From assembly GCA_026128965.1 (NCBI GenBank), contig JAHCIY010000002.1, forward strand, positions 1,448,108 to 1,512,107: a stretch of DNA of 64,000 nt, in the 5' to 3' direction. Of this stretch, positions 29,176 through 46,346 are shown in pieces. The stretch's first letter is position 1, and each line of letters opens with the position of its first letter. Source of the DNA: Labilithrix sp. (GTDB lineage: Bacteria; Myxococcota_A; Polyangia; Polyangiales; Polyangiaceae). The position numbers were made by a program, and so were the translations under genes. A model generated the notes under the pieces. The model ran no database searches. It worked only from the letters and a program-made list of their open reading frames with translations, and was not told the DNA's origin.

Positions 29176-29814
29176 GTGGGCGTGATCGGGCGGCGATCGA
29201 ATCGGCCTCCTGCGCTCGTGGAGCCCACGGTGTGGAGCGCCGAGGCGCCGCGCGTGACGGCGGCGTGGATCTCGCGGCCGCGCGTCGGCGAGGTGGAGAG
29301 CGGCGACGATGTGATCGTGCTGGAGCGTCGCGACGCCGTGTTCCTCGTCGTCGTCGATGCGCTCGGGCATGGGCCGAACGCGGCGCGGGTCGCGCGGGCG
29401 GCGACGGAGTGGGTGCGCTCGACGACGGACGCGGCGACGGTGCTGGACATCTCCAATGGCCTCCATCGCGCGCTTCAGGGATCGCGCGGCGCGGCGGCGC
29501 TCGTGGTCGCGGCGTCCGCCGCCGGCGTGGAGGCATGCGGGGTCGGCAACGTCGATCTCCGCTCCGTCAGCGGGCGGCTCCCGTTCGTCCTTACGCCAGG
29601 TGTGCTCGGGGTGCGGCTGCGGAGCCCGCGATCGTGCCGCGTCGATGCGCCGGTCGCGGAGCGGTTCGTCATGTTTAGCGACGGAATCTCGGGGCGGTTC
29701 GACCTGAAAGCGCTCGCCGCCATGTCGCCCGGCGAAGCGGCGACGCACGTCTTCGCGAAGCATCGTCACTCGCACGACGACTCGACCGTCCTCGTCGCCG
29801 ACGTGGCGCTCTGA
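29176..29814 (+). CDS. PP2C/SpoIIE-type serine phosphatase (RsbX-like, no sensor domain)
   Basis: GDDVIVLERRDAVFLVVVDALGHGPNAA and the distal HDDSTVLVADV metal-binding Asp motifs typical of SpoIIE/RsbU-family phosphatases. The true start may lie downstream of 29176. Confidence 0.75.
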   Translation: MGVIGRRSNRPPALVEPTVWSAEAPRVTAAWISRPRVGEVESGDDVIVLERRDAVFLVVVDALGHGPNAARVARAATEWVRSTTDAATVLDISNGLHRALQGSRGAAALVVAASAAGVEACGVGNVDLRSVSGRLPFVLTPGVLGVRLRSPRSCRVDAPVAERFVMFSDGISGRFDLKALAAMSPGEAATHVFAKHRHSHDDSTVLVADVAL

Positions 29815-29841: not shown

Positions 29842-29909
29842 CCGAGCATGACCGCGAGCCGAGCATGACCGCGAGCCGAGCATGACCGCGAGCCGAGCAT
29901 GACCGCGCC
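29842..29909 (+). repeat. 17-bp x4 perfect tandem repeat (gccgagcatgaccgcga), each copy carrying an ATG; the last ATG is the start of the downstream gene
   Basis: ATGs at 29848, 29865, 29882 and 29899, exactly 17 nt apart. The first three are followed by an in-frame TGA (MTASRA*). The fourth opens the 157-aa ORF. Confidence 0.8.
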
Positions 29910-30372
29910 GCTGCCTGTCGCTTGCACCGTCGCCGACTTCGACGCCGTGCTCACCGCGCGCGCGCACGTGCGCTCGTTCGCGGGGGCGCTCGGGTTCGAT
30001 CGCGAGGTCGTGGAGGAGCTCGTCGTCGTCGTGTCGGAGCTCGCCTCGAACATCGTGAAGTACGGGCGGCGCGGTCGCATCGAGCTCACCGCGATCGATC
30101 GGCCGGAGGAAGGGATGCGCGGGATCGCGATCGCGGCCGAGGACGAGACCGCGCCCTTCGACCTCGCGGGGAGCCTCCGCGACGGCTACGACGCGCGCGG
30201 CAAGCTCGATCCCGCGAGCGTCTACGGCCGCGGCGGCATCGGCGCCGGGCTCGGCGCGGTCGCGCGCTTCAGCGACGGGCTCGATCTCGTCCCCCTCGCC
30301 GGCGGAGGAAAGCGCATCGTAGCGCGCCGCCTGCTCGGCCGGCCACGCCGCGGCTCGTCGCCGTCGTTCTGA
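29899..30372 (+). CDS. Anti-sigma-factor-type Ser/Thr protein kinase (HATPase_c_2; RsbW/RsbT/SpoIIAB-like)
   Basis: VVVVSELASNIVKYG (N-box-like E..NA..Y) and a Gly-rich ATP lid (GRGGIGAGLG). 157 aa. Confidence 0.8.
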   Translation: MTAPLPVACTVADFDAVLTARAHVRSFAGALGFDREVVEELVVVVSELASNIVKYGRRGRIELTAIDRPEEGMRGIAIAAEDETAPFDLAGSLRDGYDARGKLDPASVYGRGGIGAGLGAVARFSDGLDLVPLAGGGKRIVARRLLGRPRRGSSPSF

Positions 30373-30727: not shown

Positions 30728-31369
30728 TCAGTCGTCGTCGGGGGAGAAGTAGCGGGTGATGTAGCGCTGGAGGGCGGTGCGCATCGTGCGGTGGGTGAGG
30801 ACGCCGCTGAGGTCGACGCCCATGTGGATGATGGTTTGCGCGATGGCCGGGTTGATGCCGGTGAGGAGGCACTCGGCGCCGAGGAGGCGGACCGCGCGTG
30901 CCATGCGGAGGAAGTGATCGGCGGTTCCGGTGTCCATGACCTGGATGCCGGTGATGTCGATGATCGCGCAGTCCGCTTTTTTCTCGACGATCGCGCTGAG
31001 GAGCGCCTCCGTCATCTCGGCGCTGCGGGTGCTGTCCAGCACGCCCACGACCGGGAGACAGAGGACGCCGGCCCAGACCTCGATGATCGGGGTCGACAGC
31101 TCGCGGATCGCCGCGCGCTGGATCTCGATCGTCGCGAGCTTCTCCTCGAGCTCCTTCTGGTACGTCGCGCTCCGCTCCTGCTCCTTCGCGAGCGAGCCGA
31201 TCATCTGGTTGATGCCCTCGTAGAGCGTCGAGAGCGGGTGGTTCTCGGGCAGGTTGCTCTTGAGGCGCGTCGAGTAATCACCGCTTCCCACGTCCGCGAC
31301 GACGATGAGGATGTCAGCGATTCGCTCGAGCATCAGCTCCGACAAGTTCTGGTCGACCGCCTCCGGCAT
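30728..31369 (-). CDS. STAS-domain protein with ~95-aa N-terminal coiled-coil extension (RsbR-like stressosome/partner-switching component)
   Basis: C-terminal STAS (SpoIIAA-like) fold: IIEVWAGVLCLPVVGVLDSTRSAEMTEALL....ADCAIIDITGIQVMDTGTADHFLR...LLGAECLLTGINPAIAQ. AAGGA 9 nt upstream of the ATG at 31369. Confidence 0.8.
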   Translation of the reverse strand: MPEAVDQNLSELMLERIADILIVVADVGSGDYSTRLKSNLPENHPLSTLYEGINQMIGSLAKEQERSATYQKELEEKLATIEIQRAAIRELSTPIIEVWAGVLCLPVVGVLDSTRSAEMTEALLSAIVEKKADCAIIDITGIQVMDTGTADHFLRMARAVRLLGAECLLTGINPAIAQTIIHMGVDLSGVLTHRTMRTALQRYITRYFSPDDD

Positions 31370-31437: not shown

Positions 31438-31872
31438 TCAGCGCGTCTCGCGCGGCGTTCGCGGCCGCGGCCGCTTGTTGGGGCCGCCCTTGGGCGCGTG
31501 CCCGTCGAGGCGGCCGATCCCGAGCGACTTGAACGCCGCCTCGAGCGTGAGCGCCGTCCGGACCACGCCCATGTCTATCCCCATCGTTTGGAGGGTGATC
31601 GCGACTTGCGCGTTCATCCCACAAATGATGCTGTCCGCGCCCATCAGCCGCGCGGAGGCGGCGAGGCGCGAGAGGACGGCGCAGAGGTGGCTGTCGACCA
31701 TCCAGATACCCGTGAGATCGATGATTAACCCTTCCGCCCCGGTATCCCGGATGGTGTCGAGCACCTGATCTACCAGCCGCTCGGCGATGTGGTCGCTCAC
31801 GTCCCCCTGGAGCGGGACGAGCACTTGGTTCCAGAGGTGGATCACCGGGAGGCGATCGAGGCTGTCCGTCAT
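31438..31872 (-). CDS. Single STAS-domain protein (RsbS/anti-sigma-factor-antagonist-like)
   Basis: Start at the internal ATG (MTDSLDRLPVIHLW). STAS signature VIHLWNQVLVPLQGDVSDHIAERL....LIIDLTGIWMVDSHLCAVLSRLA...GADSIICGMNAQVAITL. The longer track ORF upstream is Arg-rich and not protein-like. Confidence 0.8.
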   Translation of the reverse strand: MTDSLDRLPVIHLWNQVLVPLQGDVSDHIAERLVDQVLDTIRDTGAEGLIIDLTGIWMVDSHLCAVLSRLAASARLMGADSIICGMNAQVAITLQTMGIDMGVVRTALTLEAAFKSLGIGRLDGHAPKGGPNKRPRPRTPRETR

Positions 31873-31929
31873 CGCGGCCGAGATTCGCACGAGACGCCGT
31901 GTCCGTCGAGCCTCGGCGCTACATCTGTT

Positions 31930-32235
31930 ATGGGTGATTTCATGGAAATGCGGGAAAGCTTTCGCGCGCCCTTTCTGGAGATGGCGTGGCAACGCCACCG
32001 TCGCATCGCCCAGCTCCTGAGCGAGGCCGGCGGGGAGAGCACGGAGCTCCGCTCCGCGGCGTCGGAGCTGCATTGCCTCTCGGGCGAGGCGAGCATGCTC
32101 GCCTTCGACGGCGTGGCCGACGTCGCGCGCGACGCGGAGGCGGCGGCGCGCAAGGGGGACCGCGTGCGGCTCCGCAACCTCGTCGAGGAGCTGCGCTCGG
32201 AGATCGAGGCCGTCGCCGAGGAGCGCGCGCCGTGA
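31930..32235 (+). CDS. Hpt (histidine phosphotransfer) domain protein
   Basis: Internal ATG at 31930 (MGDFMEMRESF). Phosphoacceptor-like helix ELHCLSGEASMLAFDGVA (H.LKGSA...G pattern). Its stop overlaps the GTG start of the downstream CheB gene. Confidence 0.6.
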   Translation: MGDFMEMRESFRAPFLEMAWQRHRRIAQLLSEAGGESTELRSAASELHCLSGEASMLAFDGVADVARDAEAAARKGDRVRLRNLVEELRSEIEAVAEERAP

Positions 32236-33332
32236 CGATCCGCGTCGTCGTCGTCGACGACTCGTCGATCTCGCGGATGGTCCTCCGCCGCATCCTCGAG
32301 GCGGACGGCGACATCCAGGTCGTCGGGGAGGCGACGAACGGCTTCGAGGCGCTCCCGAAGATCCTCGAGCACAAGCCGAACCTCGTCACGATGGACATCG
32401 ACATGCCGGGCCCGAGCGGGCTCGAGACGATCGGCCGCGTCATGGGGACGAGCCCGGTGCCGATCCTCGTCGTGACCGCCGAGCGCCTCGGACCCGACAG
32501 CGACGTCGGCTTCCGCGCGATCCAGTCCGGCGCGCTCGACTTCATGGCGAAGCCGTCGATCGGCGACGAAGAGAGCATGAAGATGCTGCGCCAGCACGTC
32601 CGCGTCCTCGCCGACGTGCCGGTGTTCCTCCACATGGAAGAGCGGCACGACGCGTCGCGCACGATGCGCGCGGGCCCGATCGAAGAGCCGCCGCCGTTCT
32701 CGCTCATCGCGATCGCGGGCGGCACCGGCGCGCCGAAGTCGGTCGCGACGATCCTCGAGGCGATCCCGCCGGGAATCTCCGCGCCGATCGTGATCGTGCA
32801 GCAGATGCCGGCGAAGTTCGGGGCCGCGTTCGTGAAGTACCTCCAGGGCGCGACCGCGCTCCGCGTGCGCACCGTCTCGGCGACGCCGCACGACTGCATG
32901 CCGGGTGAGGTCATCGTCGGCGAGCCGGGAGCGCACGTGTACTTCCCGCGGCGCGGCGTCGTCGTCTCGCGCGAGGGCGCGCCGTACGCGGGGGCGCTGC
33001 CGTCGATGACGGTCATGTTCCGCTCGATCGCGGAGACCTACGGAAAAGACGCGGTCGGCGTGCTCCTCTCGGGAACGGGGACCGACGGCCTCGAGGGCCT
33101 CGCCGCGATGCGCGAGGCCGGCGCGCTCACGATCGCGGAGAGCCCCGACTCCGCGCCCGTCGCCGAGCTCCCCGCCGCCGCGCTCGCCTCGGGCGCCGCC
33201 ACGCGCGCGCTCCAGGCGCAGATGATCGCGAGCTCGCTCGTGAGCGCGATGACCGACGTCGGCAAGAAGACGACCGCGCCGCCGAGCAGCGACCCCGCGT
33301 TCGCCGCGGAGCTGGACGTGCGAATGCGCTGA
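32232..33332 (+). CDS. cheB: Chemotaxis-type protein-glutamate methylesterase/deamidase CheB (REC + CheB_methylest)
   Basis: GTG at 32232 (VTIRVVVVDDSSISR). Receiver Asp region (VTMDIDMPGPSG), then catalytic domain with IVIVQQMP, GTGTDGLEG and S/H/D triad context. The first ~80 aa of the track ORF 31986..33332 fall in a different, non-protein-like region. Confidence 0.9.
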   Translation: MTIRVVVVDDSSISRMVLRRILEADGDIQVVGEATNGFEALPKILEHKPNLVTMDIDMPGPSGLETIGRVMGTSPVPILVVTAERLGPDSDVGFRAIQSGALDFMAKPSIGDEESMKMLRQHVRVLADVPVFLHMEERHDASRTMRAGPIEEPPPFSLIAIAGGTGAPKSVATILEAIPPGISAPIVIVQQMPAKFGAAFVKYLQGATALRVRTVSATPHDCMPGEVIVGEPGAHVYFPRRGVVVSREGAPYAGALPSMTVMFRSIAETYGKDAVGVLLSGTGTDGLEGLAAMREAGALTIAESPDSAPVAELPAAALASGAATRALQAQMIASSLVSAMTDVGKKTTAPPSSDPAFAAELDVRMR

Positions 33333-33413: not shown

Positions 33414-33779
33414 CTATCCGGCCTCCGAGAAGAACGCGGCGAGGCGGGAGGCGAGGGTGGCGCCGTCCTTGGGGACCGAGCCGCGGGCGCCGATGCGGGA
33501 CGCGAGGGCGTCCACCTCGCAGGGGGGGCGATCCGAGAAGAGGACCACCGGGAGGCGCGCCGCGTGGCGGGAGACCACCTCGACCAGCGCGTCGTCCGTG
33601 ACGCCGGGGTAGCTCGCGTCGACGAGGAGCAAGTCGGGGGTTCCGCCGGCGACCGCATCATCGATTTTTCCAGGGTCTTCGACGCTGGCGACCTCGTGGC
33701 CCGCCGCGGCGAGGGCGTGGGCGACGACGGCCCGGACGAGGGCGCTGTCGTCGACGAGGAGGATCTTCCGGGGAGACAC
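33414..33779 (-). CDS. Single-domain response regulator (CheY-like)
   Basis: Start at GTG (VSPRKILLVDDSALVRAV...). DLLLVDASYPGV...LPVVLFSD receiver signature. Upstream in-frame sequence would overlap the divergent 33859 gene and is not protein-like. Confidence 0.7.
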   Translation of the reverse strand: MSPRKILLVDDSALVRAVVAHALAAAGHEVASVEDPGKIDDAVAGGTPDLLLVDASYPGVTDDALVEVVSRHAARLPVVLFSDRPPCEVDALASRIGARGSVPKDGATLASRLAAFFSEAG

Positions 33780-33858: not shown

Positions 33859-34260
33859 ATGGGGCCCGAGACGATCGACATCGCGATCAAGATGGAGGGG
33901 GACATCGTGCGCGCCCGCGGGGCGGGGCGCGAGATGTGTCGCGAGCTCGGGCTCAGCGAGATCAACCAGGTCAAGGTCGCGACCGCGATCTCCGAGCTCG
34001 CGCGCAACATCTTCCACTACGCGCAGACCGGGAACATCCACCTCCGGAAGCTCGCGTCGCCGCGCCCCGGCATCGAGATCGTCGCGACCGACCGCGGCCC
34101 CGGCATCTCCGATCTGAAGCTCGTCCTGAGCGGCACGTACCAGTCGCGCACCGGGATGGGGAAGGGCCTCCTCGGCGCCCGCCGGCTCGTCGACTTCTTC
34201 GAGGTCGACACCGGCCCGGAGAAGGGCACGCGCGTCGTCCTCCGCAAGTACGCGCGGTGA
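33859..34260 (+). CDS. Anti-sigma-factor-type Ser/Thr kinase (RsbT-like switch kinase)
   Basis: KVATAISELARNIFHYA plus Gly-rich GMGKGLLGARRL ATP-lid. 133 aa. Followed 4 nt later by the GAF-PP2C gene. Confidence 0.8.
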   Translation: MGPETIDIAIKMEGDIVRARGAGREMCRELGLSEINQVKVATAISELARNIFHYAQTGNIHLRKLASPRPGIEIVATDRGPGISDLKLVLSGTYQSRTGMGKGLLGARRLVDFFEVDTGPEKGTRVVLRKYAR

Positions 34261-34264
34261 CGGC

Positions 34265-35560
34265 GTGAACGGGGAGATCCAACAACACCTCGACCGCCTG
34301 CGCGCCTTCGGCGGGCTCCGCCGCGAGCTGCGCGTGCTCGAGGACCTGGAAGGGATCGCGCGCGTGGCCCTCCGCTTCGCGGTCGACGTGCTCGGCTGCG
34401 CGCGCGCCGCGCTGTATTGCGCCGAGAAAGAGGACGGCGACTACGTCCGCCTCGCCGTCACCGACGAGACGCGCGCGACGCCGGCGTCGATCGAGCGCTC
34501 GTCCCCGCTCGGACAGGCGCTCGCGGACGCGGTGTGGACGACCGCCGATCCGATCGTGACCGCGTTCGGGGAAGGGGAGCCGATGGCCGCCGCCGTCGCG
34601 CTCCGCGGCTCGGCGGGGCAGCCGCTCGGCGCGCTCCTCGTCGCCGGCGCGCGCCTCGACGAGGAGCTCCTCGGCGAGCTCGCCTTCGACGTCGAGAGCG
34701 TCCTCGCGGTGCGCCTCATCGCGCAGCTCCGCGCGGAGGAGCTCGCGGTGCTCGAGATCCAGGAGCGCGAGCTCGTCGGCCTCTTGCGCGACGTCGAGGC
34801 GCGCGACGAGATCATCCAGCGCGATCTCGAAGAAGCGCGCCGCTTCCAGCGCCAGATGCTGGGGACGCCGCCGCGGATCGCGGGGGCGGCGGTCGAGGTC
34901 GTGTACACGCCGCTCGGCCTCGTCGGCGGCGACCTCTACGCCGTGTCGGCGGAGGACCGTCGCGTGCGCATGTTCGTCGCCGACGCGACGGGGCACGGCG
35001 TCCGCGCGTCGCTCACGACGATGTTCATCAAGAGCGGCTACGAGGCGGTCCGCCGCTCGGCGCCGGATCCGGCCTCGCTCCTCGCCGCGCTGAACGAGAC
35101 GATCGCCCACACCTACCGCAGCGCGGAGATGCTCTTCTCCGCGGTGTGCGTCGATCTCGACCTCGACACCGGGCGCCTGTGGATCGCGTCCGCCGCGCAC
35201 CCGCCCGCATGCATCGTCCGCGCCGGCGCGCCGGTCCTCCTCGAGGCCGGCGGCGCGTTCCTCGGGCTCCGGCCCGGCATGAAGTTTGGCCTCCACGAGG
35301 ATCGGATCGCGCCGGGAGATGGGGTCTACCTCTATACCGATGGATTCGTCGAAGCTCGAAAGGGGCAGGAGCAGTTCGGCGACGAGCGCTTCCAGGCCGC
35401 GATCGTGGACGCGCACGTCCGCGGAGAGAAGGCCGGCGCCGCGGTGCTGGCCGCGGTGACGGAGTTCCTCGCCGGTGGTGCGCTCGAGGACGACGGCACC
35501 TTCGTCGGCCTGCGTTTCGGGGTGGAGGACGACAGTGTGCCGAGCGTCCGGAGCGTCTGA
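34265..35560 (+). CDS. GAF-domain PP2C/SpoIIE-type serine phosphatase (RsbU/RsbP-like)
   Basis: GTG start. N-terminal GAF-like region, then GGDLYAV...RMFVADATGHGVRASL...YLYTDGFVEAR...DD.T phosphatase motifs. Confidence 0.85.
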   Translation: MNGEIQQHLDRLRAFGGLRRELRVLEDLEGIARVALRFAVDVLGCARAALYCAEKEDGDYVRLAVTDETRATPASIERSSPLGQALADAVWTTADPIVTAFGEGEPMAAAVALRGSAGQPLGALLVAGARLDEELLGELAFDVESVLAVRLIAQLRAEELAVLEIQERELVGLLRDVEARDEIIQRDLEEARRFQRQMLGTPPRIAGAAVEVVYTPLGLVGGDLYAVSAEDRRVRMFVADATGHGVRASLTTMFIKSGYEAVRRSAPDPASLLAALNETIAHTYRSAEMLFSAVCVDLDLDTGRLWIASAAHPPACIVRAGAPVLLEAGGAFLGLRPGMKFGLHEDRIAPGDGVYLYTDGFVEARKGQEQFGDERFQAAIVDAHVRGEKAGAAVLAAVTEFLAGGALEDDGTFVGLRFGVEDDSVPSVRSV

Positions 35561-35636: not shown

Positions 35637-36155
35637 ATGTCGACGCACGACGATCAGTCGCTCTTCGAGCTGCGCTTCCGGCCGACGGTGGCCCTCGCGT
35701 CGACGGTGCGTCGCTTCGTCGCGGAGTTCTACCGCGAGCTCCTCTCCGACGCCGACGTGAGCCACCGCCTCGCGATGGCGACGCACGAGATGCTCGAGAA
35801 CGCGGTCCACTACTCGATCGATCAGCGCTCCGAGCTCGTCATCTCCGCGCGCCGCGTCGAGGGCGAGCTCGTCGTCGCGATCCGGACGAAGAACCGCGCG
35901 ACGACGGAGCGCCTCGAGAAGGTGCGCCTCCACCTCGACGAGGTGCTCGGCGCGTCCGACGCCTCGGCGATGTACACCCGGCTCATGCATCGCGCCGCGA
36001 AGCGCACCGACGGCGGCAGCGGCCTCGGGCTCGGTCGCATCCGCGCGGAGGCCGACCTCGCGCTCTCGTACGCGATCGACGGCGACACGATCGCCGTCAC
36101 CGCCGAAGGGCATTTCCCACGCGCAGAAGGCGCGCTGCTGACAGGGGCCCCATGA
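35637..36155 (+). CDS. HATPase_c_2-like protein kinase (partner-switch kinase, SiaB/RsbW-like; tentative)
   Basis: Internal ATG at 35637 (MSTHDDQSLF). LAMATHEMLENAVHYS resembles the E..NA..H N-box of anti-sigma kinases. Gly-rich DGGSGLGLGRIR follows. Its stop overlaps the next start (ATGA). Confidence 0.6.
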   Translation: MSTHDDQSLFELRFRPTVALASTVRRFVAEFYRELLSDADVSHRLAMATHEMLENAVHYSIDQRSELVISARRVEGELVVAIRTKNRATTERLEKVRLHLDEVLGASDASAMYTRLMHRAAKRTDGGSGLGLGRIRAEADLALSYAIDGDTIAVTAEGHFPRAEGALLTGAP

Positions 36156-36547
36156 TCGACATCCCGAACATCGACGCGAACGATCTCCGTGCGGCCCCGA
36201 CCTTCACCGACGGGCAGCTCTCGGTCGTGTTCGCGGGCAGCGCCGACTCGCGCTCGCAGGACGCGATCCAGGAGCTGCTCCGTCGCGTCCACGCCGAGGC
36301 GATGCGCCTCCAGCTGCCCGAGGTCGCGATCGACTTCCGCGACTGCGACTTCGTGAACTCGTCGTGCTTCAAGGCGTTCGTCGTCTGGCTCGAGCAGATC
36401 CAGGAGCTCGACGAGAACCAGCAGTACCGCCTCCGCTTCTTCTCCGACGACACGAAGGCCTGGCAGAGGCGGAGCCTCCAAGCGCTCTCGTGCTTTGCGA
36501 TCGAGCTCGTTCATATCGAGTCGAAAGCCCGTCGTGTCGGCAGCTGA
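36152..36547 (+). CDS. Small acidic protein resembling STAS/DUF1987 (SiaC-like) phosphorylatable partner-switch proteins (tentative)
   Basis: 131 aa. Pattern LSVVFAGSADSRS...EVAIDFRDCDFVNSSCFKAFVVWLEQIQ recalls the phospho-Ser/Thr loop plus beta-strand of antagonist-type folds. Family call is from memory only. Confidence 0.5.
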   Translation: MIDIPNIDANDLRAAPTFTDGQLSVVFAGSADSRSQDAIQELLRRVHAEAMRLQLPEVAIDFRDCDFVNSSCFKAFVVWLEQIQELDENQQYRLRFFSDDTKAWQRRSLQALSCFAIELVHIESKARRVGS

Positions 36548-38030
36548 AGCGCTCCCGAACGACATCGTCGCTCAGTTTCGAGCGACGACGGTGGAGCGCC
36601 TCGGACGCATCGAAGAGGCGTGGGGCTCGCTCGCGCACGGCGTCGCGACGGCGGAGAACGAGTCGGAGCTGTTCCACGACGTCCACACGCTGAAGGGCGA
36701 GGCCCGCCTCGTCGGGTTCGCCGACGTCGTCCTGATCATCCAGCGGCTCGAGGACCTCCTCGTCGCCGCGCGCCGCCGCCGCTACCGCGTGAACGAGGAC
36801 GTCGACGTGCTCGTCACGATGGCGATCCAGTTCGCGCGCATGCTCGTGCGGAAGCGCCCCGGCGCGTCGAACGGCGGGATCGACATCGGCGGCTTCCTCA
36901 AGCAGATCGAGGACGTCCTCGCGGAGTGGCCGCGCCAGTCGGAGGGCCCGGAGTCGAACGGCGCCGCGTCGATGCGCCCGGCCGACGGCGGCAAGATCAC
37001 GGTCGCGATCCGGCAGCGCCTCGGCGGCGCGGCGACCCAGATCTTCCTCGAGATGCTCGTCGCGTCCGACCGGATCCGCCTCCGCCGCGCGTGGGACACG
37101 CTCGTCGGCGAGCTCGCCGGCCTCGACGCGGTGCCGCTCATGCCCGTCGCTCGCCACCACGCGGCGTCGGCGAAGGAGCTCGCGGCCGAGCTGGGGAAGG
37201 AGGTCGACGTCATCGTCGAGGGCCCCGATCTGCGCGTCGGCGTCGAGGTCCTCGACACGATCCACACGTCGCTCCTCCACTGCCTGCGCAACGCGGTCGA
37301 TCACGGGATCGAGCCGCCGAGCGCCCGCGTCGCCGCGGGCAAGCCGCGCCGCGGCAACGTCTGCGTGAAGGTCCGCGCCGAGACCGACAGCGTCGCGGTG
37401 ATCGTGCAGGACGACGGCGGCGGCGTCGACCTCGAGTCGATCCGCGATCGCGCGGCGAAGCTCGGGCTCCTCTCGGCCGAAGACGCGCTCGCCGCGCCGG
37501 AGGCGACGCTCCTCGATCTGACGTTCGCGGCCGGCTTCTCCGTGCGCGAGTCCGCGGGCACGGTGTCGGGCCGCGGCATCGGGCTCGACGCCGTGCGCGC
37601 AGGGATCGAGCGGCTCGGCGGGCGGATAGGGATCGCGTCCACGCGCGGCGTGGGGGCGATCGTGTCGTTCGAGGTCCCGAGCACGCGGCGCGTCGTCGAG
37701 GTGCATCGCCTCCCGTCGACGCAGGCCGGCCTCTCCTTCGCGATCCCGACGACGTGGACGGTGCGGAGCGGCAAGAGCGATTCGTACCTCGATCCAGTCA
37801 CCGTGCTCGCGCTCCGGCGCAACGAGCAGACCACGCCGACGGTGGGTCAGATCGTCGTCACGCGCGACGGCGAGGAGCACGGCCTCGTCATCGGCGGCCC
37901 CGTCTCGCGCGTCGCCGCGACGCGCATCGCGCCGACGTCGCCGGACGAGCCGCTCGAGGTCGTCGCGTTCGGCGGCGAGCACCTCCTGCTCCTCCGCCCC
38001 GAGGTGTTCTTCACCGCGCGCGGCCCCTGA
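36528..38030 (+). CDS. CheA-like histidine kinase (Hpt - dimerisation - HATPase - CheW-like), no P2 domain
   Basis: Likely GTG start near 36528-36531, overlapping the end of the 36152..36547 gene. N-terminal Hpt H-box HDVHTLKGEARLVGF; CheA-type N-box HCLRNAVDHGIEP; G-boxes DDGGGVD, GRGIGLDAV; C-terminal ~110-aa CheW-like domain. Confidence 0.85.
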   Translation, partial: PVVSAAEALPNDIVAQFRATTVERLGRIEEAWGSLAHGVATAENESELFHDVHTLKGEARLVGFADVVLIIQRLEDLLVAARRRRYRVNEDVDVLVTMAIQFARMLVRKRPGASNGGIDIGGFLKQIEDVLAEWPRQSEGPESNGAASMRPADGGKITVAIRQRLGGAATQIFLEMLVASDRIRLRRAWDTLVGELAGLDAVPLMPVARHHAASAKELAAELGKEVDVIVEGPDLRVGVEVLDTIHTSLLHCLRNAVDHGIEPPSARVAAGKPRRGNVCVKVRAETDSVAVIVQDDGGGVDLESIRDRAAKLGLLSAEDALAAPEATLLDLTFAAGFSVRESAGTVSGRGIGLDAVRAGIERLGGRIGIASTRGVGAIVSFEVPSTRRVVEVHRLPSTQAGLSFAIPTTWTVRSGKSDSYLDPVTVLALRRNEQTTPTVGQIVVTRDGEEHGLVIGGPVSRVAATRIAPTSPDEPLEVVAFGGEHLLLLRPEVFFTARGP

Positions 38031-38035
38031 TCGGA

Positions 38036-38404
38036 TCACGCCTCGCCGAGGACGCTCTTCACCTTCGCGAGCAGCGCGTCGGGTCCGGCCTTCTTCGTGA
38101 CCCAGCCGTCGACCTCGGCTTCGGCCGCGCGCCGGGCGAGCTCCTCCTCGTCGAGGCTCGAGAGGAGGAGGATCGGCGACGATACTTTGTACGCGCCGCG
38201 GAGCGCGCTCGCGAGGTCGTCGCCGAAGACCTCCGGCATCTGGACGTCGACGATGATGAGGTCGGGCGCGGCGCGCCGGCGCTCCGCTTCGAACGCGGCG
38301 ACCGTCGTCGCGGTCGCGACCTCGTAGCCGGCGCGCTCGAGCACGGCGCGCGTGAAGTCGAGCACGAGCGCGCTGTCGTCGATGAGGAGGATCCTACGCG
38401 GCAC
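38036..38404 (-). CDS. CheY-like single-domain response regulator
   Basis: RILLIDDSALV...LIIVDVQMPEV...SPILLLSS...WVTKK receiver motifs. Confidence 0.85.
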   Translation of the reverse strand: MPRRILLIDDSALVLDFTRAVLERAGYEVATATTVAAFEAERRRAAPDLIIVDVQMPEVFGDDLASALRGAYKVSSPILLLSSLDEEELARRAAEAEVDGWVTKKAGPDALLAKVKSVLGEA

Positions 38405-39143
38405 CGTATTCGCTCCACGGCGGCGCGCCGATCAGGAACTCGAGCGTGCAGAAGAGGTCCTTCAGCGCGATCGGCTTGGCGAGGAAGAGGTCGGCGCCGG
38501 CGTCGAGCATCGCCTGGCGCGCCGCCCTTCCGGCGCCGCTCATCCCGACGATGAAGGCGAGCCCGAGCTGGGTGTCGGCGCGGAGGCGCGAGACGAAGTC
38601 GGTGCCGGAGCTGGCCTTCAGCGTGTGATCGACGAGGAGGAGATCGAGGTCGGGGCGCGCGAGGCGCCACGCCTCCTCCGCCGTCGCCGCCTGCACGAGG
38701 CGGAGGCGGGCGGAGCGTTGCTTGAAGTAGCGCTCGAACGCGTACGCGAACGTGTCGCGAATGAGCTGGTTGTCCTCGACGAGCAAGACCGAGAGCTCGC
38801 GGTTCGCGAGCGCGCCGGGGACCGGGCGGATGCGCCGCGCGACCTCACGCGCGCGCTCTCGCTGCCGCTCGTCGGCGAAGTCGAAGGTCGCGACGAAGCC
38901 GGGCGGCGAGCCGGGACCGTCGGAGACGCGGATCTGCGTGACGGCGGCGGAGAGGCGGAGCGGGCGGAAGATGCGCGGGAACGAGAGCTCGACGCTCACG
39001 CGATGATCGAGAGGCGGGAGAAGCTCGGTGATCACGAAAACCGACTCTTCCGTCATCTCGATGGCACACGTCGTCTCCGCGAAGCCGTCGCGGAAGAGCT
39101 CGGCACGCAAGATCGCGCTGCGCTGTGCGCTCACGGTCGTCAC
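38394..39143 (-). CDS. Response regulator with N-terminal PilZ-like domain (tentative) and C-terminal receiver
   Basis: C-terminal REC (LSVLLVEDNQ...LLLVDHTLK...IVGMSG...AKP). N-terminal ~120 aa have an R(x)4R element and DGPGSPPG loop suggestive of a degenerate PilZ. Overlaps the downstream CheY-like gene by 11 nt. Confidence 0.6.
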   Translation of the reverse strand: MTTVSAQRSAILRAELFRDGFAETTCAIEMTEESVFVITELLPPLDHRVSVELSFPRIFRPLRLSAAVTQIRVSDGPGSPPGFVATFDFADERQRERAREVARRIRPVPGALANRELSVLLVEDNQLIRDTFAYAFERYFKQRSARLRLVQAATAEEAWRLARPDLDLLLVDHTLKASSGTDFVSRLRADTQLGLAFIVGMSGAGRAARQAMLDAGADLFLAKPIALKDLFCTLEFLIGAPPWSEYGAA

Positions 39144-43270: not shown

Positions 43271-45000
43271 GCGCACTTCGGGTTCTTCCAGCGAAAGCGG
43301 TCGACGAGCACGACGGGATCGTCCTTCTTCAGCGGATCGACGCGGCCGAAGACCCACCCGTCGGCGTGACTACCATCCTTCTTGAAGCGCAGCCGGACGA
43401 AGTGCTTGTAGCCGGGGTGCGCGAGCGCGCTGAAGGCCTGATGCTGCTCGATGCCGAGCATCGTGAGCAGCATCAGGTACGCGCCGAGCGCGAGGGTCCC
43501 GACGTACACCGTGCCGGCGAGGCCGAGCGCGAGGAACGTGAGCGCGCGCGCGATGTGGAACCACAACAGCACCTCGAACACCACGAGCGGCAGGAGACCG
43601 ATGACGGAGCCGCACACGAGCGAGAGCGCCGCGACCTTGAGGCGGTTCTTGCGGAAGCCGCCGAGGAAGAAGCAGACGAGGAACGCGGCGAGCGCGACGA
43701 CGACGCTGAGCAAGCCGGCGCCTTCGTGCGTGCGCCACTGGTGCATGAAGATCGGCGCCTGCACGAGCGCGAGCACGGTGTGCACGACGAAGCCGGAGCG
43801 ACCGTGCGCGATCTGCCAGGGGACCTGGAGCGCGAGGACGACCGTCGTCGTCCGGCCGGGGAACTCGGCGTCGGGCTCGGGCAGGCCGCGCCGGTTGATC
43901 GTCGCGGGGTGGAGGAACGCGCCGCCGCCGCCGGCGAGGACCTGCATCCCGGGGCCCATCGTCTGGCGGCAGTAGTGATGCGTGTCGCCGGTGAGGACGA
44001 GGAGGCCGTCCTTCTCGATCCCGAGATCGAGCGCGGCGAGGATCTCCTGCCCCGCGCGGCTCGGCTCGAGGAACGCGTACGGCGGGTCGGCGACGCAGAG
44101 CACGATGCCGCGATCGGGGTCGCGCTCCTCCGCGAAGAACGCGCGCTGGTGGAAGTCGACGAGCCGGAGCTGGCGGTCGGCGCCCCAGAGATCGAGGTTG
44201 GGCGCGACGCGGAAGGTCCAGTAGCTCGCGTCCTGCACCGGCGTGTAGCCCGTCAGCGCGAGGGCGGCGCGCTTCACGACGTTGGTGCCGAGGCGGAAGG
44301 CCTCGACCCACTCGACGAAGTGCCCGATCTGGCCGAAGCGATCGACGGAGAGGTCGTCCTCCTTCTCCGCGCGCCCGAGCATGAGCCGCCGCGCGCGGAA
44401 CATGCGGCCGAAGCCGTCGAGCCCGGCGTACCAGTCGTGGTTGCCGGGGACGCCGAGCAGCGCGCGCTTCTTGTCGTCCGCGACGGTGCGGAGCACGGTG
44501 TTGAACGGCACGCAGACGCGGTTGTGGATCTCGACCTCGGTCGCGACCGGATAGGCGGTGTCGCCGCCGAAGAGGAGGACGTCGCCGCGCGGGAGGACGA
44601 GCTTCTTCGTCGGATCGTCGGGATCGTCGACCTCGTACTCGGACGCGATGAGGCGCGCGACGGCCTTGCTGACGGAGAAGTCGTCGCCGGTGTCGGAGAC
44701 GAAGTCGATCCAGACGTCGCCGTCGAGCGCCTCCGCGAGGCTGTCGGCGTCGGGGCGTGCGGCGCCGATCGTGTCGGCGAGGCGGCGCGTGAGCGCGCGC
44801 GCGGTGGCGGGGTGCATCCAGTCGCGCGAGTCGATGTCCTCCGTCGCGATGACGCTCGCGGCGAGGTGCCAGAGGTGACCCCAGAACGATTTGAAGCCGA
44901 ACCACGCGATCGCGCGCGGCCAGCGGTTGCCGCGGCGGTAGAACAACTTCGGCGCGTCCTCCGGCAGCGGCACGGGGACGACGACGGACGGCTCGGGCAC
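43261..45000 (-). CDS. Calcineurin-like metallophosphoesterase with C-terminal multi-pass membrane domain
   Basis: Metallophosphoesterase motifs GDTGDDF (D-x-H/GD), GDTAYP (GDxxY), GNHDW (GNH[DE]), GDTHHY. The last ~170 aa contain 4-5 hydrophobic helices. Confidence 0.8.
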   Translation of the reverse strand: MPEPSVVVPVPLPEDAPKLFYRRGNRWPRAIAWFGFKSFWGHLWHLAASVIATEDIDSRDWMHPATARALTRRLADTIGAARPDADSLAEALDGDVWIDFVSDTGDDFSVSKAVARLIASEYEVDDPDDPTKKLVLPRGDVLLFGGDTAYPVATEVEIHNRVCVPFNTVLRTVADDKKRALLGVPGNHDWYAGLDGFGRMFRARRLMLGRAEKEDDLSVDRFGQIGHFVEWVEAFRLGTNVVKRAALALTGYTPVQDASYWTFRVAPNLDLWGADRQLRLVDFHQRAFFAEERDPDRGIVLCVADPPYAFLEPSRAGQEILAALDLGIEKDGLLVLTGDTHHYCRQTMGPGMQVLAGGGGAFLHPATINRRGLPEPDAEFPGRTTTVVLALQVPWQIAHGRSGFVVHTVLALVQAPIFMHQWRTHEGAGLLSVVVALAAFLVCFFLGGFRKNRLKVAALSLVCGSVIGLLPLVVFEVLLWFHIARALTFLALGLAGTVYVGTLALGAYLMLLTMLGIEQHQAFSALAHPGYKHFVRLRFKKDGSHADGWVFGRVDPLKKDDPVVLVDRFRWKNPKCAAR

Positions 45001-45077
45001 GACCGCCTCTTACTACATCCCTGTGGAGAAAATCCCGCGCAACCACCGCGAAGGGCGGTCGAACGACGCGCACACAC

Positions 45078-46346
45078 ATGACGCACGAGACGACCGAGAT
45101 CGACGTGGTCACCGCCAAGGCGCCGCCGCGGCTCTTCCTCGAGGTCCAGGACGGCGGCCGCACGCGGCGCGTCCCGCTCGAAGACCGACCGATGACGGTC
45201 GGCAGCGCGTCCGGCGTCGACATCCGGATCGACGATCCGACCGTGAGCGCGCAGCAGTGCACGATCGCGCTGGAGGACAAGGGCGTGCACGTCGCCGACA
45301 CCGGCTCGAAGAACGGGACGTTCATCGGCGGCGCGCGCGTGCGGGACGGTTGGGGCGCGCCGGGGGCGGTCATCGTCGCGGGGCGCGTCACGATCGTCTG
45401 CGCGGCGGCGAGCGGCGATGAGGAGGCCGACGTCGTCACCGGCGCGCCGCTCCCCGGCATCGCGGGGGCGTCGAGCGCGATGCTGCGCGTGGCGCGCCAG
45501 GTGCGCTGGCTCGCGAACCACGCCGCGCCGGTGCTCGTCACCGGTGAGACCGGGGTCGGGAAGGAGCTCGTCGCGCGCGCGCTCCACCGCGAAGGCGCGC
45601 GGAGCGAGGCGGAGTTCGTCGCGCTCAACGTCGCGGCGCTCCCGCGCGAGCTGGTCGAGAGCGAGCTCTTCGGCCACGAGCGCGGGGCGTTCACCGGCGC
45701 GACCGCGCGGCGCGACGGCGCGTTCGTCGAGGCCGAGGGCGGGACGCTGTTCCTCGACGAGATCGGCGAGCTCCCGAGCGACGCGCAGCCGAAGCTCCTC
45801 CGCGCGCTCGACGGCTACGAGGTCCGCCGCGTCGGCGGCGCCGGTTCGGGGAAACGAACCGACGTGCGCGTCGTCGCGGCGACGCACGTGCCGCTCCTCG
45901 AGCACGTCCGCGCGGGCCGCTTCCGGCGGGACCTCTTCCACCGGCTCGAGGTCTTCGTCGTCGAGATCCCGCCGCTGCGCGCGCGTCCGGGCGACATCCT
46001 CCCGATCGCGAGCACGATCCTCCAGCAGCTCGAGCCTCAGATCGGCGAGCGCGATCTCACGCCCGGCGCGAGCGCGCTCCTCACCGCGCACGAGTGGCCC
46101 GGCAACGTCCGCGAGCTGCGCAACGTGCTGCTCCGCGCGGCGGGGCTCTCGAACGAGTCGCGGTGGATCCACGCGCAGGCGATCACGCGCGCGATGGCGC
46201 CGCGGGCCGGGCCGAAGGTCCTCGGCTTCACGCCCGATCGCGCGCGCGACTGGCTCGCGAGCCACGCCGGCAACGTGAGCGCCGCCGCGCGCGCGGCGAA
46301 GATGCCGCGGACTACGTTCCGTAAGCTCTTGGCGAGGACGGGATGA
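45078..46346 (+). CDS. FHA-domain sigma-54-dependent transcriptional activator (FHA - AAA+ sigma54 interaction - HTH)
   Basis: FHA signature (MTVGSASGVDIRIDDPTVSAQQCTI...GSKNGTFIGG); Walker A GETGVGKE; GAFTGA motif in ERGAFTGA; Walker B LFLDEIGEL; arginine finger region; C-terminal Fis-type HTH. Confidence 0.9.
   Translation: MTHETTEIDVVTAKAPPRLFLEVQDGGRTRRVPLEDRPMTVGSASGVDIRIDDPTVSAQQCTIALEDKGVHVADTGSKNGTFIGGARVRDGWGAPGAVIVAGRVTIVCAAASGDEEADVVTGAPLPGIAGASSAMLRVARQVRWLANHAAPVLVTGETGVGKELVARALHREGARSEAEFVALNVAALPRELVESELFGHERGAFTGATARRDGAFVEAEGGTLFLDEIGELPSDAQPKLLRALDGYEVRRVGGAGSGKRTDVRVVAATHVPLLEHVRAGRFRRDLFHRLEVFVVEIPPLRARPGDILPIASTILQQLEPQIGERDLTPGASALLTAHEWPGNVRELRNVLLRAAGLSNESRWIHAQAITRAMAPRAGPKVLGFTPDRARDWLASHAGNVSAAARAAKMPRTTFRKLLARTG

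Follow-up and report, generated by a model that had tools for sequence, protein, structure and literature searches.

The window analysed here, a 64,000-nucleotide stretch of a Labilithrix sp. contig, contains a gene for a stand-alone Hpt protein that runs directly into a gene for a protein with an N-terminal REC domain and a C-terminal CheB fold. Around this pair lies a compact series of genes for stressosome-type, partner-switch and phosphorelay proteins, listed below with coordinates, strand, length and the matches on which each assignment is based.

29176..29814, plus strand: RsbX-like PP2C/SpoIIE phosphatase, ~210 aa (Pfam SpoIIE 1.8e-5, at threshold)
29899..30372, plus strand: RsbT-like small HATPase_c_2 protein, 157 aa (Pfam HATPase_c_2 1.9e-9)
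30728..31369, minus strand: RsbR-like protein, 213 aa (C-terminal Pfam STAS 3.6e-13)
31438..31872, minus strand: RsbS-like single STAS protein, 144 aa (Pfam STAS 1.8e-9)
31884..31910, no strand assigned: bipartite intergenic motif, TTCGCACGA - ~13 nt - CGTCGAG, between the divergent rsbS-like and hpt starts
31942..32235, plus strand: stand-alone Hpt, 97 aa (phospho-His in 'SELHCLSGEAS')
32232..33332, plus strand: REC plus CheB-fold protein, predicted pseudo-methylesterase, 366 aa (Pfam)
33414..33779, minus strand: single-domain REC, 121 aa (Pfam Response_reg 2.1e-9)
33859..34260, plus strand: SpoIIAB/RsbT-like Ser kinase, 133 aa (Pfam HATPase_c_2 and HATPase_c; NCBIfam spIIAB 7.5e-9)
34265..35560, plus strand: SpoIIE/PP2C phosphatase, 431 aa (Pfam SpoIIE 2.1e-39; SiaA-like 3.7e-12)
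35637..36155, plus strand: slr1658-like HATPase-fold protein, 172 aa (Pfam HATPase_c_2 and DUF6272, sub-threshold)
36152..36547, plus strand: SpoIIAA/RsbV-fold STAS protein (slr1659-like), 131 aa (AF2, Foldseek and profile)
36534..38030, plus strand: CheA-type histidine kinase, 498 aa (Pfam Hpt 1.3e-10 and HATPase_c 2e-12 only)
38036..38404, minus strand: CheY-like single REC protein, 122 aa (Pfam Response_reg 4.6e-21)
38394..39143, minus strand: 249-aa protein, N-terminal domain followed by REC (Pfam Response_reg 2.7e-11)

The Hpt gene is best read from the ATG at 31942, a start common to all orthologues and preceded by a conserved GGTGA; an alternative start at 31930 (ORF 31930-32235, plus strand) would give 101 aa, and the 84-aa call made by NCBI from 31981 loses conserved residues. 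The ORF scores above the Pfam Hpt threshold (E=9e-8, 32.7 bits, cut-off 24.6), and its conservation in relatives, on which the original prediction had made itself depend, is seen in 63 homologues at 55-72% identity. The His of 'SELH[CT]L[SG]GEA' is invariant across every orthologue inspected, with the Lys of the usual HxxKG motif replaced by Ser or Gly. As had been claimed, the Hpt gene overlaps the CheB-type gene, the TGA stop (32233-32235) sharing a GTGA at 32232-32235 with the GTG start (32232-32234), and the stop and start codons of the two genes overlap or abut in all gene tables examined. These observations support the Hpt-CheB pairing as a conserved, translationally coupled unit. The pair is also divergent from the RsbS/RsbR-like STAS genes, again in agreement with the earlier description, with 57 bp separating 31872 on the minus strand from 31930 and 69 bp separating the RsbS-like start from the ATG at 31942. 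The bipartite motif in this spacer is kept in ~10 orthologous loci, the remainder of the spacers being unalignable, and is a candidate promoter or operator. No sigma-70 consensus was found at the motif, and a scan for sigma-70 promoters and terminators around the gene pair gave nothing above shuffled background.

The protein encoded downstream of Hpt consists of a REC domain (residues 1-127), a disordered linker (137-151), a CheB-fold domain (158-345) and a clade-specific C-terminal tail (K346..T348-A-P-P-S352), and its ORF matches both Pfam Response_reg (3e-19) and CheB_methylest (5.9e-41). Its original description as a full-length CheB holds for this domain architecture and fails at the active site, where the catalytic Ser and His are missing. 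The catalytic triad of CheB is Ser164-His190-Asp286 (PMC3180692). The alignment that had been suggested as a check on these residues, made with phmmer against Salmonella CheB (1A2O), places G164, Q191 and D285 of the window protein against S164, H190 and D286, such that Ser164 is Gly, His190 is Gln and Asp286 alone is kept. The nucleophile motif aligns ungapped, reading 'IAI-A-G-G-TG' in the window and 'IAI-G-A-S-TG' in the canonical enzyme.

These replacements extend across the clade. When 68 clade members were compared with 49 canonical CheBs, the substitutions were S164->G in 99%, H191->Q in 63% and Q303->E in 99%; G195, G312 and M313 were lost and D285 was kept. Q303, G195 and the G-M of the GMP motif, all replaced in the CheB-like protein, are invariant in the canonical CheBs. 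The proposal that this CheB acts as an enzyme on a non-MCP substrate is accordingly at odds with the alignment, given Gly164 and Gln191 in the window and the absence of Ser164 from 67 of the 68 clade members and from all 20 cassette loci with a CheB-like gene, each of which reads A[SAG]G[TIV/A]GG. Among the nearest 150 cluster representatives (50%-identity clusters, 1.84 billion proteins), Ser, His and Asp are kept in 136, and the G...D-E signature accounts for about 9 clusters. The window protein also falls below both NCBIfam CheB models, scoring 243.9 bits where 342 are required and 228.9 where 293 are. Most orthologues possess a Ser one position ahead of the canonical site ('ASGTGG'), and a more distant subclade retains His190; judged from this motif, a shifted Ser nucleophile may exist in such orthologues. 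For the window protein itself a shifted nucleophile was ruled out, neither Ser nor His being present there.

In REC, 97-100% of clade members keep D9, D10, D55, T82 and K107, and because these residues and the Hpt His are all conserved, the proposed transfer of phosphoryl groups from Hpt to the REC domain of the CheB-like protein is plausible. The AF2 model has a pLDDT of 91, and the modelled C-domain superimposes on 1CHD and 3SFT with TM scores of 0.85-0.88 and an rmsd of ~2 Å. In close pairs, dN/dS is 0.13-0.18 for the C-domain and 0.09-0.18 for REC; only close pairs were used, with distant pairs set aside because ~90% GC3 constrains synonymous sites and inflates their ratios. The CheB-fold domain is thus under purifying selection. 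Mean pairwise identity is 75% for REC versus 60% for the C-domain, the ORF is intact in ~70 homologues at 41-77% identity, and the C-domain carries the clade-specific invariant residues E303, P193, Y270 and R325, as well as a position 312, close to the former active site, that is often D or E. Because the active-site residues are replaced, the REC residues intact, the fold retained and the domain under purifying selection, the window protein is, on sequence and model evidence, a conserved pseudo-methylesterase, not an orphan enzyme. In the open-access papers searched, neither a catalytically dead CheB nor the cassette described below has been reported.

The statement that nothing in the 64 kb encodes an MCP, CheR, CheD or CheW was borne out by Pfam scans of the large coding-looking ORFs, which gave no match, and a flanking MCP/cheR/cheW block, named beforehand as counter-evidence, does not occur on the right side, where MCPsignal, CheR, CheW and CheD are all missing within 8.7 kb past the window edge. 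None of these four was found within ~10 kb at the 8 orthologous loci with precomputed Pfam annotation, nor a CheR-type methyltransferase at any annotated cassette locus. The lack of a chemoreceptor or CheR nearby is understandable because the CheB-like protein has lost the residues for cutting methyl groups. Thus the Hpt-CheB observation stands, with its meaning changed by the dead active site. Absent from the earlier description is a gene for a CheA-type kinase, 3.2 kb downstream of the pair.

Upstream of the pair, RsbR-type, RsbS-type, small GHKL kinase and PP2C genes form the stressosome gene set, and such genes are co-located at many loci. The RsbS-like orthologues are nearly invariant over residues 1-122. 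The RsbR-like protein has an N-terminal region that is HAMP-like by eye, then a coiled-coil linker, then a C-terminal STAS part that is ~100% identical among orthologues. The RsbT-like gene adjoins the RsbR/RsbS genes at several other loci, and its G1 box is degenerate, reading 'EDETAPF' in the window and 'EDETPPF' in most orthologues; RsbX-like orthologues are present in other cassettes. The linker of the RsbR-like protein carries a conserved 'EQxRSA...ELEEK' stretch. This stretch was considered as a modification site of CheB/CheR type and dropped, the triad being absent and no CheR having been found.

Downstream of the pair, the gene for the 121-aa REC protein converges on the CheB-like gene and is transcribed away from the kinase/phosphatase pair; its DD, D, S and K residues are conserved, as is its position in core-cassette loci. 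The 133-aa Ser kinase, with intact N, G1 (DRGPGI) and G2 boxes, is among the most conserved of the cassette proteins (66-89% identity), and the 431-aa phosphatase that follows has a GAF-like N-terminal region (weak Pfam GAF). The slr1658-like protein keeps an N box and a G2-like box, lacks the DxGxG G1 box, and matches the NCBIfam slr1658 superfamily at 1.1e-11, below cut-off. A STAS fold for the 131-aa protein is supported by a deeper alignment, which matched SpoIIAA in the PDB at E=0.0066, and by an AF2 model (pLDDT 93) that Foldseek places closest to anti-sigma antagonists, SpoIIAA and RsbV among them; a shallow profile had no relevant PDB match, hhalign profile-profile comparison with the RsbS/RsbR alignments gave E values of 0.06-0.11, and the match to the NCBIfam slr1659 superfamily (4.7e-7) is below cut-off. 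SiaC structures are also among the fold matches of this protein. Its Ser70 is invariant and aligns with a SpoIIAA Ser that we take to be the phosphorylated Ser58. The components of a partner switch are therefore all present: a STAS protein with a putative phosphorylatable Ser, a GHKL Ser kinase with intact boxes, and a PP2C phosphatase. The cassette genes showed no sigma factor domain, and it is the CheA-type kinase gene that comes after the STAS gene, its start overlapping the latter.

This kinase combines a P1/Hpt domain ('DVHTLKGEA') with a P4 domain of the CheA class that matches Thermotoga maritima CheA at 2.5e-36, including the N, G1 and G2 boxes. The core domains of CheA are Hpt, H-kinase_dim, HATPase_c and CheW (PMC10782961). 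In the kinase of the window P2, P3 and P5 were not detected, with no Pfam H-kinase_dim or CheW match at E<=0.01; of P5, the first strand alone aligned in the T. maritima comparison, and a profile of the unassigned C-terminal domain (~110 aa) from 10 orthologues found no CheW/P5 or other match in the PDB. The stand-alone Hpt is not recognisable as a duplicate of the P1 domain of the kinase, the two aligning over 14 residues around the His (E=0.007), and a PDB sequence search with the Hpt gave no match. At the end of the series, the N-terminal domain of the 249-aa protein resembles the TIGR02266 paralog domain at 1.2e-4, below cut-off, a family that is presumably PilZ-related.

These genes recur as a cassette of 13-15 genes spanning ~11 kb, found in 19 loci (~15 distinct genomes), all in Polyangia and including the cultured Labilithrix luteola DSM 27648, where it lies inside 6,862,005-6,882,379 of NZ_CP012333.1, with synteny kept at all 19 despite unrelated flanks. 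The cassette comprises the RsbR/S/T/X-like module, the SpoIIAB-like kinase with its SpoIIE phosphatase, the slr1658-like and SpoIIAA-fold STAS proteins, the CheA-type kinase (P1 and P4), three single REC proteins, the Hpt and the CheB-like protein. Variants occur: in three loci (L009, L018 and L019) the genes for the 249-aa REC, CheY-like, Hpt and CheB-like proteins form one co-directional run, and another (L007) has related CheB-like, REC and Hpt genes but neither a SpoIIE nor a CheA-like gene within 10 kb. The genes next to distant slr1658/slr1659-like pairs (L022-L032), oxidoreductases and DUF885 among them, are unrelated and offer no functional clue. The cassette has so far been found only in Labilithrix-type myxobacteria (Polyangia).

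Taking the gene content and order together, the reading that we favour, with moderate confidence, is that the CheB-like protein is a response regulator with a dead CheB-fold output, acting as a phosphorylation-switched binder within a cassette that joins a partner switch, a CheA-type kinase and an Hpt relay. In such a scheme, the Ser kinase and SpoIIE phosphatase would control whether the STAS protein is phosphorylated, and its state, with the slr1658-like partner, would gate the CheA-type kinase. The order of the classical operon is rsbV-rsbW-sigB, and the kinase would take the place that sigB has in it. Phosphoryl groups would then pass from the P1 His of the kinase to a single-domain REC, to the stand-alone Hpt and finally to Asp55 of the CheB-like protein in a His-Asp-His-Asp relay, with translational coupling holding Hpt and CheB-like protein in fixed proportion. 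Phosphorylation would free the CheB-fold domain to bind rather than hydrolyse, its probable target being a helical partner within the cassette, and the outcome would be a non-catalytic counterpart to CheB feedback. Everything in this scheme beyond sequence and fold is inferred from gene order. The relay could be wired differently: by analogy with RsbK-RsbY or HptB-HsbR, the adjacent REC could instead carry its signal to the SpoIIE phosphatase, and the Hpt could be phosphorylated in trans directly by the CheA-type P4 without a REC step.

Other roles for the CheB-like protein have to be weighed against the favoured role as a phosphorylation-switched binder. That it remains an active methylesterase or deamidase, fed by Hpt and working on a non-MCP substrate or on MCPs elsewhere in the genome, draws some support from the complete REC and CheB_methylest architecture with its strong Pfam scores, from the retained Asp286, from the orthologues with a Ser beside the canonical position or with His190, and from the precedent of a non-MCP kinase, RsbK, that is methylated by RsbM in Bacillus cereus (PMC4574943). 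An active enzyme is nonetheless improbable with Gly in place of the nucleophile and Gln in place of the general base, Ser missing from 67 of 68 members, Q303 and the GMP motif replaced, scores under the NCBIfam CheB cut-offs and no CheR-type methyltransferase at the annotated loci. Retooling of the fold for some other chemistry, with Asp285, Glu303 and clade-specific residues in the former active site, would make sense of the invariance of Asp285, the new invariant E303, the frequent D/E at 312 and the strong selection on the domain. We give it an equally low probability: it is purely speculative, the cassette shows neither a cofactor motif nor a substrate-related gene conserved alongside, and we know of no CheB-fold enzyme that functions without a Ser nucleophile.

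Two further explanations dispense with a function for the C-domain altogether. The REC domain might serve as a phosphate sink for the Hpt or kinase, drawing off their phosphoryl groups, with the CheB-fold domain a passive passenger, and here the fully conserved REC residues, the position of REC as the best-conserved part (75% versus 60%) and the several REC proteins in the cassette, as in sink-using systems, all fit. Purifying selection on the C-domain is, however, similar to that on REC in close pairs (ω 0.13-0.18), E303, P193, Y270, R325 and the K..TAPPS tail are conserved in a clade-specific manner, and three single-domain RECs are already available as sinks, all of which makes a sink unlikely. 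Loss of catalytic residues would also be expected of a decaying CheB paralogue, or the gene might lie beside Hpt by chance and without functional meaning, yet the intact ORF in ~70 homologues at 41-77% identity, ω far under 1 in close pairs, the confidently predicted fold and the synteny at 19 loci with unrelated flanks leave this explanation almost no room, as it is contradicted already by synteny, selection and the clade-wide residue data. The reading as a phosphorylation-switched binder can also be extended to the whole cassette as a receptor-less 'chemosensory' machine, in which the RsbR/RsbS STAS assembly would stand in for the MCP array, the kinase would dock through its C-terminal domain and the slr1658-like/STAS pair, and the dead CheB would give adaptation-like feedback through phosphorylation-dependent binding to the RsbR coiled-coil linker, with no demethylation; as a joint proposal this is a decidedly long shot.

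The CheB-like protein is probably a phosphorylation-switched binding protein. CheB is regarded as a dedicated chemoreceptor-adaptation enzyme, and a conserved, selected CheB that lacks nucleophile and general base suggests that the fold can persist as a non-catalytic output of a response regulator. The window protein is labelled 'chemotaxis protein CheB' by automatic annotation, and such genes call for caution before they are counted as evidence for methylation-based adaptation. The cassette also brings three paradigms into one conserved unit, namely a stressosome-type sensor, a Ser-phosphorylation partner switch and a CheA/Hpt/REC phosphorelay, and its composition suggests a partner switch with a histidine kinase, not a sigma factor, as output, an arrangement of which no description was found in the open-access papers searched. 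Its scope is limited, with Polyangia genomes the sole known carriers and the mechanistic steps all inferred; the presence of the cassette in the cultured L. luteola DSM 27648 makes these ideas testable.

Each part of the cassette has a counterpart in a known system and departs from it. Like canonical CheB of Escherichia coli and Salmonella (1A2O, 1CHD), the CheB-like protein has an N-terminal REC domain with an acceptor Asp, a flexible linker, a C-terminal CheB fold, Asp286 and a CheA-class kinase encoded nearby, but it has Gly for Ser164 and Gln for His190, substitutions at Q303, G195 and the G and M of the GMP motif, and a clade-specific tail; MCP, CheR and CheW are not encoded nearby, and the gene is coupled to a preceding stand-alone Hpt. 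The Bacillus subtilis cascade runs from the RsbR/S/T/X stressosome through RsbU, RsbV and RsbW to sigma-B. With it the cassette shares RsbR- and RsbS-like STAS proteins, small HATPase_c_2 proteins, PP2C phosphatases and a SpoIIAA/RsbV-fold STAS protein adjoining an anti-sigma-like protein; it differs in having no sigma factor gene, a CheA-type kinase after the STAS/anti-sigma-like pair, an anti-sigma-like protein without a G1 box, and the extra Hpt, REC and CheB-like parts. In the HptB-HsbR-HsbA system of Pseudomonas aeruginosa, an Hpt reportedly phosphorylates a REC domain fused to a PP2C phosphatase and is served by a hybrid sensor kinase. There too a stand-alone Hpt is tied to a PP2C phosphatase, a kinase and a STAS partner switch, whereas here the Hpt is coupled to a REC and CheB-fold protein and the kinase is of CheA type, not a hybrid sensor.

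The use of a chemotaxis-type modification family in an MCP-less, partner-switching stress pathway recalls RsbK-RsbY-RsbM of B. cereus, in which RsbM, a catalytically active methyltransferase of the CheR type, modifies a helix of the kinase (PMC4574943); the cassette differs in that its CheB-type protein lacks catalytic residues and a methyltransferase is absent. For the stand-alone Hpt, a possible route of phosphorylation in trans is provided by the split CheA3/CheA4 of Rhodobacter sphaeroides, where an Hpt domain is reported to be phosphorylated by a separate CheA core (PMC6829392); CheW and MCP-like receptors belong to the chemoreceptor cluster in which that system operates, and none of these is found here. 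P. aeruginosa SiaABCD likewise consists of a kinase, a PP2C phosphatase and a STAS-fold switch with an enzyme, rather than a sigma factor, as output, in that case a diguanylate cyclase (PMC8457831); the output here is presumed, from gene order only, to be the CheA-type histidine kinase. Finally, the adjacent 172-aa and 131-aa proteins match weakly the Synechocystis pair slr1658/slr1659 (NF047703, NF047705; PMC7555055), with 44.5 and 30.1 bits against a curated cut-off of 100. The cyanobacterial pair is itself mechanistically uncharacterised, and it is in the Polyangia cassettes only that such a pair is met in association with a CheA-type kinase.

The original prediction of a stand-alone Hpt gene whose stop codon overlaps the GTG of a CheB-type gene, divergent from STAS genes, is borne out by both Pfam and the sequence. 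The window is ~70% G+C, and real genes were chosen by third-position GC and Pfam. The Hpt ORF (31930-32235, +; Pfam Hpt E=9e-8, 32.7 bits against a threshold of 24.6) ends in a TGA overlapping the GTG start (32232) of a 366-aa ORF ending at 33332 (+), which matches Response_reg (3e-19) and CheB_methylest (5.9e-41); the opposite strand carries an RsbS-like STAS gene with its start at 31872 and, after it, an RsbR-like STAS gene (30728-31369). The predicted gap of ~57 bp between the divergent genes is right if Hpt starts at 31930; the ATG common to all orthologues is at 31942, preceded by a conserved GGTGA. Shorter starts are given in public (NCBI) annotation, 31800 for the RsbS-like gene (120 aa) and 31981 for Hpt (84 aa), and because both remove N-terminal residues kept in orthologues, the longer starts (31872 for RsbS-like; 31942 or 31930 for Hpt) seem more likely. 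Between the divergent starts lies a bipartite motif, ACGTTCGCACGA, ~13 nt, then CGTCGAG (31884-31910), also present in the orthologous loci L002, L005, L010, L012, L014, L015, L016 and L021, the remaining spacer being unalignable; it does not fit the sigma-70 consensus and could be a candidate shared promoter or operator. The gene pair belongs to a conserved neighbourhood, hereafter the cassette.

Genes of the cassette (coordinates, strand, product and basis of assignment)
29176-29814, +, RsbX-like PP2C phosphatase (Pfam)
29899-30372, +, RsbT-like HATPase_c_2 protein (Pfam)
30728-31369, -, RsbR-like STAS protein (Pfam)
31438-31872, -, RsbS-like STAS protein (Pfam)
31942-32235, +, Hpt (Pfam)
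32232-33332, +, CheB-like protein (Pfam)
33414-33779, -, single REC protein (Pfam)
33859-34260, +, SpoIIAB-like kinase, 133 aa, N, G1 and G2 boxes intact (Pfam, NCBIfam, alignment)
34265-35560, +, SpoIIE phosphatase (Pfam 2.1e-39)
35637-36155, +, slr1658-like HATPase-fold protein, no G1 box (Pfam, NCBIfam, alignment)
36152-36547, +, 131-aa STAS protein, SpoIIAA/RsbV-like model (model and profile)
36534-38030, +, CheA-type kinase (Pfam, P4 alignment)
38036-38404, -, CheY-like REC protein (Pfam)
38394-39143, -, 249-aa REC protein, weak N-terminal TIGR02266 match (Pfam, NCBIfam)

Catalysis by CheB rests on Ser164, His190 and Asp286 (PMC3180692). Aligned with Salmonella CheB 1A2O (E=1.2e-45; residues counted as printed), the window protein has at these positions Gly164 ('IAIGASTGGT' versus 'IAIAGGTGAP'), Gln191 ('TQHMP' versus 'VQQMP') and Asp285, so that only the Asp is kept; the Ser/Gly alignment is gap-free, with 'AI' and 'TGG' flanking both versions. 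Across 120 homologues aligned with MAFFT, Gly occupies the Ser position throughout a clade reaching down to ~41% identity, joined by Gln at the His position in the closest subclade, and the canonical pattern returns below ~44% identity. Set against 49 canonical CheBs, 68 members of the clade show S164 to G in 99%, H191 to Q in 63% and Q303 to E in 99%, and have lost G195 and G312-M313 (GMP motif), which are invariant or nearly so in the canonical proteins; D285 is unchanged throughout both groups. A Ser sits one position earlier ('IASGTGG') in many orthologues, but it is unconserved, and absent from the window protein and from loci L007, L009 and L018. S-H-D is kept by 136 of the 150 nearest cluster representatives in a library of 1.84 billion proteins, and ~9 clusters carry the Gly...Asp-Glu signature.

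The rest of the protein is well maintained. The clade conserves REC residues D9, D10, D55 (the phospho-acceptor; D56 in E. coli), T82 and K107, and it also has invariant residues of its own and a conserved C-terminal K..T-A-P-P-S tail. In close orthologue pairs dN/dS is 0.13-0.18 for the CheB-fold domain, similar to the 0.09-0.18 of REC. An AlphaFold2 model (62 sequences; mean pLDDT 91) has two domains, both well folded, with a disordered linker (137-151), the C-domain matching 1CHD and 3SFT at TM 0.85-0.88 and REC matching that of T. maritima CheB at TM 0.89. On these features, the CheB-like protein is a putative but conserved pseudo-methylesterase. The tail, absent from canonical CheBs, spans residues 346-366 (window 33267-33332; K346, T348-A-P-P-S352, then a short predicted helix) and may be a docking peptide.

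Pfam scans of large ORFs (MCPsignal, CheR, CheW, CheD) uphold the predicted absence of MCP, CheR, CheD and CheW genes across the 64 kb; no flanking che block lies in the 8.7 kb past the right edge, where none of these genes was found, and no annotated orthologous locus holds an MCP, CheR or CheW gene. The original prediction had CheB perhaps acting on a non-MCP substrate: its REC domain and CheB fold stand, and the predicted activity is not supported, as Ser and His are missing. Judging from these residues, lost catalysis is the explanation for the missing MCP and CheR, not an unknown substrate. The protein also falls under both curated NCBIfam CheB cut-offs. It is a CheB relative by fold and architecture, yet is not filed as CheB, because the defining catalytic feature, curated family scores and genomic association all fail.

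The 131-aa protein has no Pfam match; the best matches of its model (pLDDT 93) are SpoIIAA, RsbV and other anti-sigma antagonists, and a profile of 30 sequences also recovers SpoIIAA (E=0.0066), invariant Ser70 aligning with the leading Ser of its 'DSS' motif, which we take to be the phosphorylated Ser58 of the B. subtilis sequence. The CheA-type kinase has a P1 with 'DVHTLKGEA' and a P4 matching T. maritima CheA at 2.5e-36, with no P2, P3 or P5 detectable by Pfam or by a C-terminal domain profile against PDB. It is named CheA-type because Hpt, H-kinase_dim, HATPase_c and CheW, the core domains in a survey of CheA architecture (PMC10782961), are not all detected. Of the three small GHKL-fold proteins, two have no DxGxG G1 box, the slr1658-like protein (35637-36155) having 'TKNRAT' there and the RsbT-like protein (29899-30372) 'EDETAPF' ('EDETPPF' in most orthologues), and these may engage partners without ATP; the full set of boxes is present only in the 133-aa protein (33859-34260). 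By eye, the N-terminus of the RsbR-like protein resembles a HAMP domain; an invariant 'EQxRSxxYQxELEEKL' coiled-coil linker comes next, and the STAS part is nearly 100% identical across genomes where the CheB-like protein is only ~65% identical.

Nineteen fetched loci, partly redundant and representing ~15 genomes, share a core set (Hpt, CheB-like, REC, kinase, SpoIIE, slr1658-like, STAS and CheA-type kinase), with flanking genes that vary. All named sources are Labilithrix, Polyangiaceae, Polyangiales or 'Myxococcales', including cultured Labilithrix luteola DSM 27648 (L018). The RsbR/RsbS module mostly adjoins the core set; in some loci, such as L008, it is rearranged or missing from the fetched stretch. 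Because the 249-aa REC, CheY-like, Hpt and CheB-like genes form one co-directional run in L009, L018 and L019, the CheB-like protein is tied to the phosphorelay part, and the more distant L007 keeps REC, Hpt and CheB-like, with neither a SpoIIE nor a CheA-type gene in the 10 kb around them. A second, partial copy in L. luteola (L020; NZ_CP012333.1, 6,247,399-6,267,761) has the slr1658-like/STAS pair, SpoIIE, kinase and RsbR/S/T/X-like genes but lacks genes for a CheA-type kinase, Hpt and CheB-like protein over 10 kb, which fits the relay parts being a separable sub-module. In Polyangiaceae MAGs (L022-L032), more distant slr1658-like/STAS pairs (40-45% identity) occur on their own next to unrelated metabolic genes, and the stretches examined contain neither a kinase nor a phosphatase.

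Several genomes have a sigma-54 activator gene a few kb or less from the cassette (window 44895-46346, +; L003 2547-4010; L008 9698-11035; L011 and L012 ~2350-3450), a candidate transcriptional output; those of the window and L008 have an FHA domain, and among the activators an identity of only 37-40% does not establish orthology. Elsewhere in the window, an apparently non-coding ~1.4 kb stretch (26562-28020) holds imperfect tandem repeats (27351-27712; periods ~33, 67 and 132 bp; 64-80% matches), an ORF translation just upstream of the stretch, near 26200-26400, shows a Phe-Pro repeat, and a TPR-repeat protein of >3,000 aa (3-9209, +) runs past the left edge.

Phospho-acceptor residues are conserved in Hpt and all REC domains, the ATP-binding domain is CheA-class, a complete set of partner-switch parts is encoded, and translational coupling links Hpt with the CheB-like gene and the STAS gene with the kinase gene. 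The mechanism as a whole is one that we infer: the SpoIIAB-like kinase and SpoIIE phosphatase would set the STAS phosphorylation state, which, with the slr1658-like protein, would gate the CheA-type kinase, and phosphate would pass from P1 His to a single REC, to Hpt and to Asp55 of the CheB-like protein. Phosphorylation frees the catalytic domain in canonical CheB, as established from 1A2O; by analogy, phosphorylation of Asp55 would free the CheB-fold domain, then acting by binding and not catalysis. The wiring could also be opposite, with the relay acting on the phosphatase by way of the adjacent REC, as happens in RsbK-RsbY or HptB-HsbR, or Hpt could be trans-phosphorylated directly by P4, as in split CheA3/CheA4 (PMC6829392).

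Other fates for the CheB-like protein carry less weight. A pure phosphate sink is unlikely, and a role in new chemistry is improbable. An active enzyme is equally hard to credit, given Gly164 and Gln191 at the Ser and His positions. A decaying relic is scarcely conceivable in view of the conserved REC residues, the low dN/dS of the CheB-fold domain (0.13-0.18) and the confident fold model.

No prior description of the cassette or of a dead CheB was found in the open-access papers searched. So far known from few Polyangia lineages only, the arrangement is of note both for genome annotation and to specialists in chemosensory or partner-switching signalling, and the ideas are testable in cultured L. 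luteola DSM 27648. The link of the cassette pair to cyanobacterial slr1658/slr1659, for which nothing is characterised beyond a mutant phenotype (PMC7555055), is weak because NCBIfam scores fall below cut-off. The cassette resembles the B. subtilis stressosome and sigma-B cascade, HptB-HsbR-HsbA, RsbK-RsbY-RsbM (PMC4574943) and SiaABCD (PMC8457831), but differs from all four in having a CheA-type kinase as apparent output and a dead CheB.
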